Source of the DNA: a bacterium
GTDB lineage: Bacteria > UBA8248
Length of the DNA stretch: 64,000 nucleotides
Direction of reading: 5' to 3'
Assembly: GCA_965261085.1 (NCBI GenBank)
Contig: OZ253442.1
Span: forward strand, 3,360,001-3,424,000
Below the pieces are notes generated by a model that worked only from the letters and a program-made list of their open reading frames with translations, was not told the origin of the DNA and did not search any database. A program made the translations under genes and the position numbers. Position 1 is the first letter of the stretch. Every line of letters starts with the position of its first letter. This document shows, one piece after another, positions 6,792 to 10,765 of the stretch.

Positions 6792-7319
6792 AGCCCACCT
6801 CTCCTATCTCTCGGTTGCAGAAAAGGAAAGCGCATCAGCGCCTTCCACGTCTTTTTTCAACTTCCTGGTCGCGCATATTTCTCTGACGATTTCGTTTCGT
6901 ATCCCTTCCGCGAGCACCAGGCTTCGCGACGCGAAGGGTAAAAAGAACATTTCTCCAATATACCGGAGTATCGACGGCGCATGGGGACATCGAAAAAATC
7001 TTCCCTTGGAGAGATATTCGATGTCAGTTTTCCGCCCAGGTTTTTGAAATTGGATTTAGGATCATCACCGGCACGAGGGGCCGATGAAAACCACGCATAT
7101 TTCACGTCCATCGTGGACCTCTTTTAGTGGTTCAGAAATCGCAGGTGGATCTTTGATGGCGTGGTCACAAGTATAATTTATATCAGAGCATGGTTACTGT
7201 ACCACAGAGAATAAGGCTGGGCAATTTGGCGCAATAGGTTCATGGGTTGATGTCGACCAACCATAATTATTTTCAGCTTTCGTATGACAAATGAATAATT
7301 CAGGCCCATAATTAAATTT

Positions 7320-7343
7320 GGGGAATTATATACTTGGGTTGAC
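7320..7343 (+). repeat. Left terminal inverted repeat of the IS1595 element
   Basis: ggggaattatatacttgggttgac. Confidence 0.88.
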
Positions 7344-7393
7344 AAATCCCCCGTAAGGCCCTATATTGCATGTATCACATAGGGGGATACAAG

Positions 7394-8346
7394 ATGGCGC
7401 AGAAGGCACCCGGCAAGGCATTCAGGAAGGGAATCACGATAATCGAACTGGCGCAGATGTTCCCGAACGAGGAAGCGGCTCGCAAGTGGTTCGAGGAAAT
7501 CATCTGGCCGGACGGATTGAGGTATTGCCCTGAGTGCGGAAGCGTCGATACGCACGAGTGCCAGCACGCCAAGATGCCGTACAGGTGCCGCGACTGCCGA
7601 AAGTATTTCAGCGTCAAGACCGGAACCGTGATGACGGGTTCTCCCGTTCCCCTGCTCAAGTGGCTCTACGCGATCTACCTGGACGTTACGTCGCTCAAGG
7701 GCGTTTCGAGCATGAAACTGCACCGCGATATCGGCGTCACGCAAAAGACCGCGTGGCACATGCAACAGCGCATCCGCGAGGCGTTCCGGGAGGAAGGCGG
7801 TCTGCTTTCCGGCCCGGTCGAAATCGACGAAACCTACGTGGGCGGCCTGAAAAGAAAAAGCACGGAAACAAGCGGCGTCGGGCCGGTCGCGGAGGAACCG
7901 GAAAGGATATCGTGGTCGGCATCAAGGACAGGGCCACGAACGAAATCCGCGCCAAGGTCGTGCCCGACACAAAGAAGGAAACGCTACACACGTTCATCGC
8001 CGAGAACGTGGCCGAGGGAGCCGAGAAGTTCACGGACGAGAATCGTTCGTATCGAGGACTCGACAACCACAGGGCCGTGAATCACAGCCTCGGTAAATGG
8101 GTCGATGAAATGGCCCACACGAACGGCTTGGAGTCGTTTTGGGCGATGTTCAAGAAAGGATTCCACGGCACGTTTCACCGCATGAGCCCGGCTCACCTTC
8201 ACCGCTACATCACGGAATTTGCCGGTAGACACAACATAAGATCTCTTGATACCATCGAACAGATGAAGCGGTTGGCCGAAGGGATGCGTGGAAGGCATCT
8301 TCCCTATAGTGATTTGGTGTCCGGTAATGAAAACAGCTATTCGTGA
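7394..8346 (+). pseudogene. IS1595 (ISXO2-like) DDE transposase split by a -1 frameshift at ~7847-7860
   Basis: Frame 1 has the CPECG..YRCRDC zinc ribbon, GVSSMKLHRDIGVTQKTAW HTH and VEIDETYVGG; the -1 frame continues EKKKH..TDENRSY..VNHS..HTNGLESFW..HLHRYITEFAGRHN. Confidence 0.9.
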
Positions 8347-8623
8347 AAATCCTCCTGATCGGTCTCGTGAAGCTCAGGGGCCATCACGTGCGAAACAACA
8401 GCCTCGGCCATCATCTTCATATTCCAAACGACTTCAGGAGCTAATTCCCAAGGATGTTCTGGAACTGAAACGGCGTCTATCCGATTCTGAATACCGTCAG
8501 TTACTTCTAAAGCAAGGTCCAAACCCTTATCGGGCGAATGTCTCCGAATGTTGCGAAGCGCTAAAGCGAGCAGGAGAAGAAACTTGTTTACGCTTTCTTC
8601 GTGGGGATTTTGAGCAGGCATAG
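8327..8623 (+). CDS. Hypothetical protein (IS passenger)
   Basis: 98-aa ORF overlapping the transposase end; no recognisable motif; a competing ORF lies on the - strand. Confidence 0.35.
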   Translation: MKTAIRENPPDRSREAQGPSRAKQQPRPSSSYSKRLQELIPKDVLELKRRLSDSEYRQLLLKQGPNPYRANVSECCEALKRAGEETCLRFLRGDFEQA

Positions 8624-8654
8624 ATTCGTCCTTCCTTTCTAGGGGTTGGGCGCA

Positions 8655-8689
8655 AAAATACGGCGCTGGGCCTCATCACCCAGCGCCGT
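8655..8689 (-). terminator. Intrinsic terminator of the minus-strand passenger operon
   Basis: 11-bp stem acggcgctggg / cccagcgccgt followed on - by ATTTTT, just after the 8697 stop. Confidence 0.75.
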
Positions 8690-8696
8690 TGTCGTG

Positions 8697-8843
8697 CTAT
8701 TGCGAGCGTCCAGTCATCCAGCAGAAGATACCATAAACGGCACTTCCCATGCAGATCACGGCAAACAGGATGATCGTCCAGACGAAATCACCTACGAATT
8801 GAAATAAGCTCCATGCCGTGGCGCCTAGAATGTAATCAATCAT
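8697..8843 (-). CDS. Small hydrophobic membrane peptide (48 aa; not in ORF track)
   Basis: MIDYILGATAWSLFQFVGDFVWTIILFAVICMGSAVYGIFCWMTGRSQ; G-rich RBS; fills the gap between the upstream gene and the terminator. Confidence 0.6.
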   Translation of the reverse strand: MIDYILGATAWSLFQFVGDFVWTIILFAVICMGSAVYGIFCWMTGRSQ

Positions 8844-8853
8844 CCGCCACCCC

Positions 8854-9351
8854 CTATCGCCCCAGTGATTTTAGTTCGTTCAGGCAGGCGCGGCTGTATT
8901 TGTGACATCCCGTCTGGAAGTAGTAGTTCTTATCGAGCGCGCGGTTTCCGCGCTCCAGTTCTTTGACCTTCCATTCGGGCATCCTGAACCCGCGCGTGTA
9001 CGGTTGGGTCCCGTAGGGGTCGGAAGGGTTGTGTTGTTGGGCGCGTTGTCTCATTTCGCGGAGAGCATTTTGTAGGGCCTGCTGGCGCTGTATCTGTTGT
9101 TGCCTGAGCGCATGGAGGCGTTGCTCGAGGGTCTGCACTCCGCTTTGCCGCGCGGGCGAGTTAAGCGTCGGAAGCGAACCGAGCCCCGATGGCGTCCGGT
9201 ATTGGTGTCCTTGGTTCTGCTGGGGCTGGTATCCACCACCATATAGCGGGCTTCCGCCTTGAGGAAGTTGCGTGTACGGGACGGACTGCGCGGCCGCGGC
9301 CACCGGAAACGACAGAATCAGAAACAGAACTCCTATCTTTATGTGCTTCAT
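8854..9351 (-). CDS. Secreted Gln-rich hypothetical protein (165 aa)
   Basis: AAGGAG RBS; signal peptide MKHIKIGVLFLILSFPVAAAA; Q-rich coiled region; C-terminal Cys pair. Confidence 0.72.
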   Translation of the reverse strand: MKHIKIGVLFLILSFPVAAAAQSVPYTQLPQGGSPLYGGGYQPQQNQGHQYRTPSGLGSLPTLNSPARQSGVQTLEQRLHALRQQQIQRQQALQNALREMRQRAQQHNPSDPYGTQPYTRGFRMPEWKVKELERGNRALDKNYYFQTGCHKYSRACLNELKSLGR

Positions 9352-9362
9352 GGTTTTTCTCC

Positions 9363-9506
9363 TTAATGACAGTGATAGCCGACCCGGACGCCATTGACCC
9401 AGACGTAATGGCATCCACTAAAATTCGTTCCGCCACTGTGCGCGGCCACGATGACTGGCGACAAGAGCGCACCAATGAGAAGCGACACGAGGATTGCGTT
9501 TTGCAT
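9363..9506 (-). CDS. Small secreted YHYH-type (HSGGT..GCH...YHCH) peptide (47 aa; not in ORF track)
   Basis: MQNAILVSLLIGALLSPVIVAAHSGGTNFSGCHYVWVNGVRVGYHCH; GGAGG RBS; signal peptide followed by the recognisable His/Cys motif. Confidence 0.8.
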   Translation of the reverse strand: MQNAILVSLLIGALLSPVIVAAHSGGTNFSGCHYVWVNGVRVGYHCH

Positions 9507-9574
9507 GGGGTTTCCCTCCGTTCATGAATGGCCGGTAAAGGTTGAGATTGAACGGTAGGATATGATAATCAAGG

Positions 9575-9650
9575 TATTGCAACGCGTTGTAGTGTGACTT
9601 ACCCCACCACAAGGAGGTCTCGGTTGCCGCCGAGGCCTCCTCACTTTTTT
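9575..9650 (+). ncRNA. Putative small RNA (~75 nt)
   Basis: TTGAGA-16-GATAAT upstream (~9542-9569); 12-bp hairpin 9612-9641 whose G-U pair favours the + strand, then CACTTTTTT; no + ORF. Confidence 0.4.
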
Positions 9651-9654
9651 GTGC

Positions 9655-9790
9655 AAAAATGACAACCGGCAGTCCGGGCCGGTTGTCACGCACTCCACTG
9701 GATAGGTGGGTTCCCGCGTATTCCCTCGTAATCGAGGTGTTTTATTTCGCGGGCGACCCGAAGGGCCTGCCCCAGCGAATCACGTGACAA
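9655..9790 (-). ncRNA. Putative structured RNA or attenuator leader (~135 nt)
   Basis: TTGACA-17-CATATT promoter places the start at ~9790; long imperfect hairpin; ends in an 11-bp terminator stem (9660-9688) plus U5. Confidence 0.55.
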
Positions 9791-9795
9791 TCGGA

Positions 9796-9870
9796 AATAT
9801 GCTACCTTGCAGGAAATCTGTCAAGGTGCACACAAAGGGTCTTGACGTAACATGAGGCAATCGGGATAAT
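9796..9870. promoter_or_regulatory. Divergent sigma70-like promoters with an operator-like inverted repeat
   Basis: Minus: TTGACA (9824-9819)-17-CATATT (9801-9796). Plus: TTGACG (9842-9847)-17-GATAAT (9865-9870). IR accttg..caaggt at 9804-9827. Confidence 0.6.
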
Positions 9871-9899
9871 GGCTGACCCTGAACGGAGGACACCAATCC

Positions 9900-10088
9900 A
9901 TGGCCACTAAAAAATGTGAAATATGCGGATCTAAACATTTTGAAGAAGTCAAGCAACATACGTTTTGTTTCAAATGTGGTGCCCGCGAAAGCGCCATTAT
10001 TAAGGATCTTCATCCATTGGCTTGGCAAAAGCGTATAAGTGCCACTAGAACACCGCGACCGACAAAAAAGGTGCGAAATGGACGCTGA
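9900..10088 (+). CDS. Small zinc-ribbon protein (62 aa)
   Basis: CEICG...CFKCG, basic tail, GGAGG RBS, promoter upstream. Confidence 0.65.
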   Translation: MATKKCEICGSKHFEEVKQHTFCFKCGARESAIIKDLHPLAWQKRISATRTPRPTKKVRNGR

Positions 10089-10257
10089 GCTCAAGGAATA
10101 CCTCGAAGCGATGGAAGCGCGTATAAACGAACGCTTCGATAAGATGCAGGCCGAGAATAACTGCTGGCACGAAAAAACCTATCGTCTGCAAGTTGGCTTG
10201 GAATCACGGGTAAATTCCCTTGAGGATAGAGTGAGTGCCTTAGAGAAGGGGTATTGA
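10078..10257 (+). CDS. Small coiled-coil protein (59 aa)
   Basis: MDAELKEYLEAMEARINERFDK...LESRVNSLEDRVSALE heptad pattern; overlaps the upstream stop. Confidence 0.65.
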   Translation: MDAELKEYLEAMEARINERFDKMQAENNCWHEKTYRLQVGLESRVNSLEDRVSALEKGY

Positions 10258-10258
10258 C

Positions 10259-10390
10259 ATGACCGACAAGAAACCGAAGCAACCCACCAAGAAAGAGCCG
10301 CTCAAGGCCGATTACAAGGGCGCGACACCCCGACAGGTCGGCAAGGCCGTGTTGACCTATCGTCCGAAGTCCGTCAACCTAAATATATAA
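10259..10390 (+). CDS. Small basic peptide ending inside the right TIR (43 aa; not in ORF track)
   Basis: MTDKKPKQPTKKEPLKADYKGATPRQVGKAVLTYRPKSVNLNI; starts 1 nt after the previous stop. Confidence 0.5.
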   Translation: MTDKKPKQPTKKEPLKADYKGATPRQVGKAVLTYRPKSVNLNI

Positions 10391-10396
10391 TTCCCC
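10373..10396 (-). repeat. Right terminal inverted repeat of the IS1595 element
   Basis: gtcaacctaaatatataattcccc; its reverse complement matches the left TIR at 22/24. Confidence 0.88.
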
Positions 10397-10765
10397 TAAC
10401 TTTTATTATCTTCCGTCCGCATCAAGCCGTCTTTACCGGACGTGGAATCCTGTTATCTTGTTGATATCATTGGGAGACAATCATAATCAAAAAGCTCGTT
10501 CGGAATCCGCCTTCCGCAACATGTAATCAAAAAGAAAGCGGGCCAATTATAACTCCCGCGCAGAGCGGAGCGCTCCTGTCGAAATGTCCTCCAAAGTCCG
10601 GCCCACAACGGTTTGATTGCGGTTATGCTCCGCTGCCCCGCAACGTTCATTCAGGAACCACCGGTCGGCCCGCGGCGTAGCCTCCGCCGCAGCTTGTTCG
10701 AAGTCGCCGGAGGCTGAAACAACCCGAGGCGGAGCGCGCCGTCCAGTTCCGCGCCGCCGGCGGGA

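Follow-up and report, generated by a model that had tools for sequence, protein, structure and literature searches.

What does a short, strongly folded RNA do at the head of an operon that is itself enclosed in a transposon? The question is raised by a 64,000-nucleotide (nt) stretch of a bacterial genome of lineage UBA8248 (contig OZ253442.1, positions 3,360,001 to 3,424,000), referred to below as the window and numbered from its first base. On its minus strand, within an IS1595-family element, a promoter is followed by an RNA with about 117 nt of conserved structure (about 135 nt including a terminator) and then by an operon that opens with the gene of a small YHYH protein. Judged by comparison with its relatives, this RNA represents a new, widespread and mobile family of leader RNAs and is a riboswitch candidate. 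Covariation among the copies demonstrates that the family is under selection for a shared fold. As to what the fold does, the reading we favour, at a probability of roughly 0.6, is that of a cis-acting, switch-like 5' leader of the YHYH operon, a candidate riboswitch gating the terminator.

Structure of the RNA and selection on its fold

Read directly between 9500 and 9950, the minus strand of the window presents a promoter, a set of helices and an intrinsic terminator (Table 1). The first-pass annotation, which was made from this sequence alone, had proposed the same promoter, with transcription starting near 9790, and a closing helix in competition with the terminator. Both proposals hold, as the promoter can be read in the sequence, a -35 element recurs at a fixed spacing in the family (see below) and bases 9688-9683 are common to the closing helix P1 and the terminator. 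For the 143-nt RNA the predicted folding energy is -60.7 kcal/mol (z = -3.87), a value equalled by none of 200 shuffles, and this minimum-energy fold contains the terminator and lacks P1; with P1 enforced the energy is -58.7 kcal/mol, a cost of 2.0 kcal/mol. By these calculations the P1 fold and the terminator fold are mutually exclusive and nearly equal in energy. In the window copy the small hairpin P3 is weak (GGCCC 9767-9763 with GGGUC 9759-9755). The 11-base-pair (bp) terminator stem, GC-rich and followed by a U run, was recovered by a custom script. A consensus terminator scan does not list the minus-strand feature at 9688-9655, because the 11-bp stem with its 7-nt loop precedes 'CA' before the U run in the register of that scan.

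Table 1. Features of the RNA locus and its transposon, in window coordinates (R1, covariance model of the family; aa, amino acids)
Feature	Position	Strand	Details
Sigma-70-type promoter	9796..9824	-	TTGACA 9824-9819, 17-nt spacer, CATATT 9801-9796; 10/12 consensus matches (consensus scan)
Conserved leader RNA	9674..9790	-	full-length R1 match, 104.5 bits, E = 4e-22, model positions 1-122
P1 5' strand UUGUCACG	9783..9790	-	predicted transcript start; direct reading; 8/8 pairs with double changes
P2 5' strand UUCGCUGG	9772..9779	-	direct reading; 9/9 P2 pairs with double changes
Segment X CGGGUCG	9754..9760	-	near-invariant across phyla; partners: upstream strand or tail X'
P4 5' strand CCCGCG	9748..9753	-	pairs with CGCGGG 9718-9713
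Conserved internal loop, 5' side, AAAUAAAACA	9738..9747	-	family consensus GAAUAnAAnA; invariant or near-invariant columns; also in RF02221 consensus
P5 hairpin	9724..9737	-	CCUCG 9737-9733, loop AUUA, CGAGG 9728-9724; short-P5 variant
Internal loop, 3' side, and P4 3' strand	9713..9723	-	GAAUA 9723-9719, CGCGGG 9718-9713
Joining strand AACCCACC	9705..9712	-	CCAC could pair with GUGG of P2 3' strand (by eye)
P2 3' strand CCAGUGGA	9694..9701	-	pairs with UUCGCUGG
P1 3' strand CGUGACAA	9683..9690	-	9688-9683 double as terminator 5' arm
Tail X' CGGCCCG	9675..9681	-	complementary to X; within terminator 5' arm and loop
Intrinsic terminator	9655..9688	-	11-bp stem UGACAACCGGC 9688-9678 / GCCGGUUGUCA 9670-9660, 7-nt loop CCGGACU, U5 9659-9655
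YHYH_alt mini-protein gene, first downstream	9363..9506	-	47 aa, secreted; 167 nt past end of model match
Second downstream gene	8854..9351	-	165 aa, signal-peptide-like N-terminus, no family match
IS1595-family element enclosing RNA and operon	7314..10402		inverted repeats 7314-7343 / 10373-10402, 30 nt, 87% complementary
IS1595-family transposase, two frames	7370..8346	+	Zn_ribbon_IS1595 and DDE_Tnp_IS1595

The model R1 derives from an alignment of 19 trimmed copies made with MAFFT. Re-aligned to it, 107 R1 matches at 100 loci yielded 102 distinct sequences, an alignment which is fitted to the model and so favours it; together with a further set of 77, these make up the 179 members counted in this study. 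Over the 102 sequences the nested model is 89% paired, with double changes at 30 of its 33 pairs. Two-sided changes occupy 562 cells, as against 166 in shuffles, and the covariation score of 0.537, as against 0.227, was reached by none of 500 shuffles, controls which ignore the relatedness of the copies. Sliding the 3' partners by 1-3 columns left pairing at only 36-42%, while the unfitted MAFFT seed alignment gives the same picture as the fitted one (93% paired, 21 pairs with double changes). Taken helix by helix, P1 is 87% paired with double changes at all eight pairs, P2 91% with double changes at all nine, P4 96.7% with double changes at all six, and P5 97% with all four modelled pairs covarying. 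Of five helices drawn in the first-pass annotation these four are strongly supported, whereas the fifth, GGGU/ACCC, was rejected: it is 79% paired, changes only from G-C to G-U without any double change, and is unpaired at its U-A pair in 63 of the 102 sequences. The check on homologs that had been suggested at the outset has thus returned abundant covariation, and with it a genuine structured RNA.

Because MAFFT cannot align the variable P1/P2 strands, these were also compared without an alignment. Across phyla, cognate strands pair at a mean of -20.8 kcal/mol against -8.2 kcal/mol for non-cognate ones (cognate better in 73 of 75 cases), and in the set from the window's genus at -25.0 against -12.1 kcal/mol (83 of 84). 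In a separate alignment of 68 long members, A4, which was not fitted to the model, RNAalifold chose P4, one pair of which occurs as CG 41, UA 21 and UG 6 times, as well as an 8-bp helix between segment X and the tail X' with 3 of 544 cells broken. G-U pairs are confined to one strand (UG occurs 49 times at a P4 pair, for example, and 35 times at a P2 pair), and about 45 positions in loops and junctions are kept across phyla.

Segment X, with the family consensus CGGGYYG, has two candidate partners. With the strand upstream of it, forming P3, it is 76% paired (one pair being GC 38, AU 32 and GU 8 times), and with X' it is 95% paired over the 102 sequences (one pair being CG 56, UA 38 and UG 6 times). 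An A at position 2 of X' always faces a U at position 6 of X, in 35 of 35 cases in the genus set and 4 of 4 in other phyla. As X-X' crosses P1/P2, it would have to be a pseudoknot or an alternative fold.

The position of the RNA in its transcription unit was assessed from both sides. In 84 of 102 and 41 of 77 members a TTGACA-like hexamer with at least five of six matches precedes the model start by 33-36 nt; a control window, set 100-124 nt upstream, contains such a hexamer in 12 of 102 and 5 of 77. This fixed distance places the predicted +1 at the first base of P1. Downstream, 62 of 102 and 66 of 77 members are followed by an open reading frame (ORF) of at least 45 aa that is preceded by a ribosome-binding site and starts within 200 nt; where such an ORF was found, it is on the strand of the RNA. 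By a crude in-house rule, which is not SignalP, and with ORF calls that are likewise crude, 33 of 60 and 43 of 66 unique N-termini of downstream ORFs are signal-peptide-like, where the ORFs of this genome as a whole give 503 of 3978; xCGG lipoprotein starts number 11 of 60 and 10 of 66 in the two sets and 24 of 3978 in the genome. A Pfam scan of 74 downstream ORFs of at least 100 aa, picked mechanically and in some cases wrongly, returned TbpB_B_D barrels (6), Bac_transf (3), Glyco_transf_25, OMP_b-brl, Sel1 and DUF4875 (2 each), and CsgG, Wzy_C, 17-kDa antigen, GH113, SNase and a HAMP nucleotidyl cyclase (one each). Most of the others have no family, and two tyrosine integrases in the sample are probably not regulated cargo. 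NCBIfam gave only sub-threshold matches, to Slam-dependent surface lipoprotein. On these annotations, what the cargo has in common is export and the cell envelope rather than any metabolic pathway.

Many members of the family carry a P5 extension of 30-40 nt. In 60 of 68 sequences, the apical loop of these long-P5 members (A4 columns 72-88; loci L132-L211) includes at least 4 consecutive nt that are self-complementary, namely AGCU in 34, UAGCUA in 9, GGCC in 7, UCAUGA in 5, and UAAUUA, CUAG, UGAUCA, AUUAAU and GUAGCUAC in single cases. The longest palindrome averages 4.2 nt, as against 2.2 nt in shuffled loops. Since the letters vary while palindromy is kept, selection would appear to act on palindromy itself, and this suggests loop-loop homodimers in long-P5 members. 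Kissing-loop dimerisation is known from other RNAs, such as the dimerisation initiation site (DIS) of human immunodeficiency virus 1 (HIV-1) and the guanidine-II riboswitch; the likeness to these lies in the self-complementary loop, and dimerisation in our family is putative. A covarying palindromic loop makes dimerisation of the RNA a directly testable prediction. The window's own P5 loop, AUUA, has no palindrome.

Distribution, mobility and probable kinship with sRNA-Xcc1

The first-pass annotation had implied a single occurrence inside a transposon. Instead, R1 finds eight copies in this genome and the family extends over many phyla. Within the window's genus, 20 of 22 other genomes are positive, with 1-13 copies each; in other genera of the taxonomic family 1 of 19 genomes is positive, and in the phylum 24 of 51 genomes and 4 of 15 genera are. 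A search at the DNA level gave partial matches in 22 of 61 related genomes, with G000 counted in. In carrier genomes the model accounts for dozens of 'empty' gaps of 150-250 nt.

To reach more distant relatives, a collection of species-representative genomes was scanned with a degenerate pattern consisting of X, P4 and the two loop strands. The scan found at least 117 loci in about ten phyla, 80 of them among the matches listed. Record titles among the listed matches name metagenome-assembled genomes of Alpha- and Gammaproteobacteria, Binatia, Acidobacteriota (three orders), Gemmatimonadota, Chloroflexota, Spirochaetia, Nitrospirales, Nitrospinota, Latescibacterota and several Candidatus groups. 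One title reads 'Candidatus Poriferihabitaceae', and several bin labels resemble those of what are presumably sponge-microbiome bins. R1 was applied to 74 of the 80 listed loci, excluding the window-type variant (L150, L168, L174, L187, L190 and L203), and all 74 are full-model matches, at 21.5-77.6 bits. The window-type short-P5 variant itself recurs in L150, L168, L190 and L203, whose records are titled Nitrospinota or Nitrospinaceae. Copy numbers in five genomes of other phyla are 13, 8, 7, 4 and 4. A plasmid collection searched by blastn in distant mode with L165 as query gave no match, nor did viral contigs searched with the family pattern.

Near 1.6729 Mb of the window's own genome (L002 1200-1900, L112), three related RNA units stand in tandem before the gene of a 466-aa CGGG-lipoprotein. 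The full motif is confined to the middle unit, and the third, in which the P4 sequence is inverted, may be a diverged sister class. This three-unit arrangement recurs in at least ten species of the genus.

The association with IS1595 elements extends beyond the phylum of the window. The window's element qualifies as an IS1595 with passenger genes, having a DDE_Tnp_IS1595 transposase and cargo between terminal inverted repeats. An alphaproteobacterial genome (G066) contains three 99%-identical IS1595 repeats of 2.26 kb (2258 bp) that carry the RNA. Perfect 32-bp terminal inverted repeats bound this 2258-bp element (L249 935-3192), which holds a convergent IS1595 transposase and, as cargo, the RNA and a 49-aa YHYH_alt peptide (35.7 bits). 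In L249 the -35 hexamer of the RNA promoter falls inside the 32-bp terminal inverted repeat, so that the transposon end would double as the cargo promoter. A second IS1595-family element of the same genome (L252 2682-4777) is present in three copies and carries another version of the RNA. From the arrangement shared by this genome and the window, an RNA, a YHYH gene and a convergent transposase within IS1595 ends appear to constitute a recurrent, transferable module. The proposal that read-through would lead towards the YHYH operon gains from the fact that the RNA-YHYH pair has been kept in an element of another phylum. Most family copies lie outside recognisable transposons. The alphaproteobacterial genome has, in addition, six near-identical short-P5 copies of the RNA (L255-L260), each before the gene of a 102-aa Cys-rich secreted protein with a weak Pfam DX module, which is followed by a DUF6444-like ORF. 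As the repeat starts about 55 nt upstream of the RNA, it would be another mobile cassette.

Rfam 15 was searched at gathering threshold over the whole window and in E-value mode over the RNA region and 9 + 15 + 2 related loci. At gathering threshold no family was matched in the whole window or the related loci, which agrees with the initial impression that the RNA belongs to no known Rfam family; that impression had left unmentioned a sub-threshold relative that is convincing in structure, sRNA-Xcc1 (RF02221), the only Rfam family that aligns. Against the RF02221 gathering score of 53, the window reaches 16.0 bits, and the cross-phylum relatives L133, L165 and L161 reach 32.2, 29.6 and 26.0 bits; a search of the whole genome with this model at E up to 10 gave no match. 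Sub-threshold matches to BSnc120, CC0734, ftsZ-DE and isrF were set aside as being at chance level and on terminator-like hairpins. Other candidates fared no better: hepatitis delta virus (HDV)-like, twister and other self-cleaving ribozymes have no Rfam match, and the promoter accounts for the 5' end, while the R'/R'' consensus of an attC-like recombination site misfits the P1 strands, as judged by eye only.

sRNA-Xcc1 comes from an integron cassette of Xanthomonas campestris and is reported to be an 88-nt RNA with mapped ends, seen at about 100 nt on Northern blots (PMC2996969). Of the integron cassettes of Xanthomonas, the most widespread encodes it ahead of symE and in the orientation of that gene (10.1101/2025.06.18.660453). 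Its family has seven copies in Xylella, five of them in tandem (PMC12189769), and a copy upstream of an ORF6N gene in APSE phages (10.1101/2020.03.17.996009).

The core architecture of the sRNA-Xcc1 model is also that of our family. Its closing helix (GgCcGGggG / CccCCgGcC) falls on X-X' and its inner helix on P4; the AAUACAA and GAAUA loop strands of the model have counterparts in the family, and its short apical stem and the ACCC after the helix coincide with ours. Both are multi-copy, tied to mobile DNA and upstream of a gene on the same strand. However, the sRNA-Xcc1 model begins at the X helix, whereas promoter geometry puts the +1 of the family some 30 nt earlier, and the family possesses covarying P1/P2 5' strands and a P3 strand where sRNA-Xcc1 has a local hairpin instead. 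By eye, a local pairing comparable to that hairpin is possible in the family, between the YCAC joining strand and GUGR of the P2 3' strand; in the window, CCAC-GUGG may represent such an alternative local hairpin. The transcript of about 88 nt that starts at the closing helix and characterises sRNA-Xcc1 is not what we predict here, with a start at P1. The contexts differ likewise, being an integron with symE in the one case and a transposon or the chromosome with genes for exported proteins in the other; the window copy lies in an IS1595 element, with no integrase or attC evident in annotated ORFs, though no dedicated search was made. The family is probably a distant homolog of sRNA-Xcc1, and it works like sRNA-Xcc1 without being a member by the Rfam test or by transcript architecture. 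Among the papers listed for sRNA-Xcc1, riboswitch candidates and RNA motifs, we found no treatment of a leader family, no extended fold and no description of the family.

A proposed switch-like leader and its rivals

A riboswitch candidate is recognised by a conserved, structured and covarying domain in the 5' untranslated region of a downstream gene, and such a domain is what was found. In the mechanism we envisage, transcription would start at the first base of the long closing helix P1-P2, which would enclose a junction of the small hairpin P3 with a conserved arm made up of P4, the asymmetric GAAUA-rich loop and P5, and be followed by the C-rich tail X'. Since six bases at the end of the P1 3' strand and the opening bases of X' are required to form the terminator, either P1 or X-X', if held closed, would permit read-through, and polymerase would continue into the YHYH operon, leaving it ON. 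The effector could be a small ligand or a protein acting at the conserved loop and junction; without it, the 3' arm of the terminator would displace P1, and a stand-alone RNA of about 135 nt would be released. In members that lack a terminator the same strands may have alternative partners near the ribosome-binding site, which would allow control of translation or of mRNA fate. In L023, for example, a second copy of the 5' strand lies downstream and overlaps the ribosome-binding site, and the P1/P2 3' strand can pair with this copy as well (-24.2 kcal/mol); alternatives of a similar kind occur in L036 and L113. Judging from the gene set, the signal would concern the cell surface or life style and not be a biosynthetic metabolite.

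Precedents exist for parts of this scheme. Riboswitches that control transcription termination and turn genes 'ON' are known, the adenine pbuE/ydhL type being one, and the window RNA resembles it in an aptamer-like fold near +1, in a 3' strand of the closing helix that is shared with the terminator, and in the read-through predicted upon stabilisation of P1; the P1/P2 of the family is, however, far longer, and the terminator platform is rare. Riboswitches for cyclic di-GMP (c-di-GMP-I/II) and cyclic GMP-AMP (cGAMP) occur in many copies ahead of genes for surface and secreted proteins. The likeness here is one of gene content only, with many copies before genes for surface proteins, polysaccharide enzymes and one nucleotidyl cyclase; RF01051 and RF01786 gave no match to the window region at E up to 10, and the fold differs.

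A number of observations count against a switch-like leader. No more than 9 of the 179 members (4 of the 77 and 5 of the 102) have a terminator-like hairpin with a U run at the tail. The window's terminator, which suits the attenuator proposed in the first-pass annotation, is an exception in the family, and the terminator was discarded as a general platform. Similarly, the ribosome-binding site is mostly unpaired in 32 of 99 minimum-energy folds of leaders and pairs with the motif or tail in only 18, figures on which we also gave up its occlusion as a single rule. Together these counts leave no single expression-platform logic. P1/P2, at 17-20 bp and -21 to -25 kcal/mol, is unusually long and stable for a switching helix, and in L023 it beats its alternative by 11 kcal/mol. 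Enforcing X-X' on the window RNA costs 12.5 kcal/mol, and an A at position 3 of X' faces C in 11 of 19 cases in the genus set and 1 of 5 in other phyla, a tolerated C-A mismatch. The downstream genes share a location, the envelope or the outside of the cell, and not a pathway, and so name no ligand. Many members are orthologous loci of related species, whereby counts overstate independent events. Lastly, a search of public runs listed no RNA run, and the five entries with the sequence are DNA contigs of two studies. In view of the varied platforms, the long P1/P2 and the lack of a nameable ligand, we have kept three rivals: a constitutive element, a trans-acting small RNA (sRNA) and a protein-binding leader.

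The phage HK022 put and Bacillus EAR RNAs make polymerase resistant to Rho or to intrinsic terminators, and by analogy the RNA could be a constitutive cis element, either for anti-termination or as a 5'-terminal stabiliser of foreign cargo mRNAs. Such an element would suit a helix that begins exactly at +1, the length and stability of P1/P2, the company of transposon cargo and of unrelated genes in many phyla, and ribosome-binding sites that are usually free in predicted folds; the terminator directly downstream in the window would be the obstacle it must overcome. Yet that terminator shares bases with P1 and X', an exclusive design and not one for reading through an independent terminator, the conserved loop and junction positions exceed the needs of a stabiliser, and X, X' and the P1/P2 strands have alternative partners that either are conserved or recur. 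We consider this explanation unlikely. We give less credence again to a stand-alone, trans-acting sRNA like sRNA-Xcc1, whose product of about 135 nt would pair with other mRNAs while the YHYH operon started separately. The window RNA does have its own promoter and a strong terminator, with the next gene 167 nt away and a further hairpin between, and the tandem units of this genome recall those of the multi-copy Xcc1 family in Xylella (PMC12189769). sRNA-Xcc1 itself gave a Northern-blot species of about 100 nt with mapped ends (PMC2996969). Against this, a terminator-like hairpin is missing from the tail of 170 of 179 members, and most members run into a same-strand ORF starting within 200 nt; conserved positions lie in helices and the internal loop and not in an exposed seed, and the variable parts covary to keep helices, not to fit a common target. 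Published copies of the Xcc1 family are themselves upstream of a gene, be it symE (10.1101/2025.06.18.660453) or ORF6N (10.1101/2020.03.17.996009).

Lower still we place a binding site for a regulatory protein, which would control an envelope and secreted regulon in the manner of ribosomal-protein leaders or Csr/Rsm by recognising the GAAUA loops and GC-rich hairpins. Many copies per genome before functionally related surface genes, GAAUA on both sides of the loop, similar GC hairpins P3 and P6 that could suit a dimer, and a gene set that suggests no ligand are all in accord with it. About ten phyla and transposon mobility would, on the other hand, require a partner protein that is universal or travels along, and the loci read, among which no systematic search was made, showed no conserved regulator gene next to the RNA. 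There is very little to be said for a repeated DNA element, either like a miniature inverted-repeat transposable element or part of a transposon end, whose hairpins act as DNA. It would account for multiple copies, for their presence inside IS1595 elements and for the -35 hexamer within a terminal inverted repeat, but the copies diverge strongly in sequence while keeping their pairing, G-U pairs on one strand only are a signature of RNA, downstream ORFs, where found, are on the RNA's strand, and most copies lie outside recognisable transposons, with none found in the plasmid and viral-contig searches. We regard this last explanation as highly improbable.

The switch-like leader admits of a more ambitious version, which we think possible, if doubtful as a whole. 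The family would then be a new, horizontally mobile riboswitch class of which sRNA-Xcc1 is a stripped-down form; it would sense a signal of surface life or host association, its long-P5 form would be a kissing-loop homodimer, and IS1595 would spread the module among phyla living in the same habitat. The signal, perhaps a second messenger or a compound from the host or community, would in that event switch on surface lipoproteins, secreted mini-proteins and envelope glycosyltransferases. Should the switch-like leader itself hold, the family would be a large orphan class of cis-regulatory RNA outside Rfam 15, with hundreds of representatives spread over about ten phyla and as many as 13 copies in a genome. 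It might govern the surface repertoire of many uncultured bacteria, marine or symbiotic to judge by record titles, and sRNA-Xcc1, viewed for 15 years as a trans-acting, virulence-linked sRNA, would be the core of a leader family. The family would also offer a concrete case of a cassette of promoter, sensor and cargo moving within an insertion sequence.

The operon and transposon of the window

Four ORFs follow the RNA on the same strand, encoding the 47-aa and 165-aa proteins of Table 1, a 48-aa membrane peptide and a 94-aa product. The YHYH label given in the first-pass annotation was apt, in that the product of 9363-9506 matches NCBIfam YHYH_alt at 34.8 bits (cut-off 30); Pfam, its YHYH family (PF14240) included, has no match for the 47-aa protein.

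Between the RNA and this gene, the opposite strand has a promoter-like sequence at 9542-9569 (+), TTGAGA and GATAAT 16 nt apart, and a 13-bp terminator-like hairpin with T6 at 9612-9641 (+). Together they could make the region 9542-9651 (+) the source of a transcript of about 75 nt, antisense to the sequence that separates leader and YHYH gene; an Rfam BSnc120 match there is weak, at 23.9 bits.

The two transposase frames overlap, 7370-8080 encoding the zinc ribbon and 7534-8346 the DDE domain, with an A-rich run at about 7850-7860. The split may reflect either a frameshift mutation or programmed slippage. At the other end of the transposon (9900-10390, plus strand), three small genes diverge from the RNA promoter, their products being a zinc-ribbon protein (62 aa), a coiled-coil protein (72 aa) and a basic protein (43 aa). 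These divergent genes are faced by another promoter-like site at 9842-9870, TTGACG and GATAAT separated by 17 nt.

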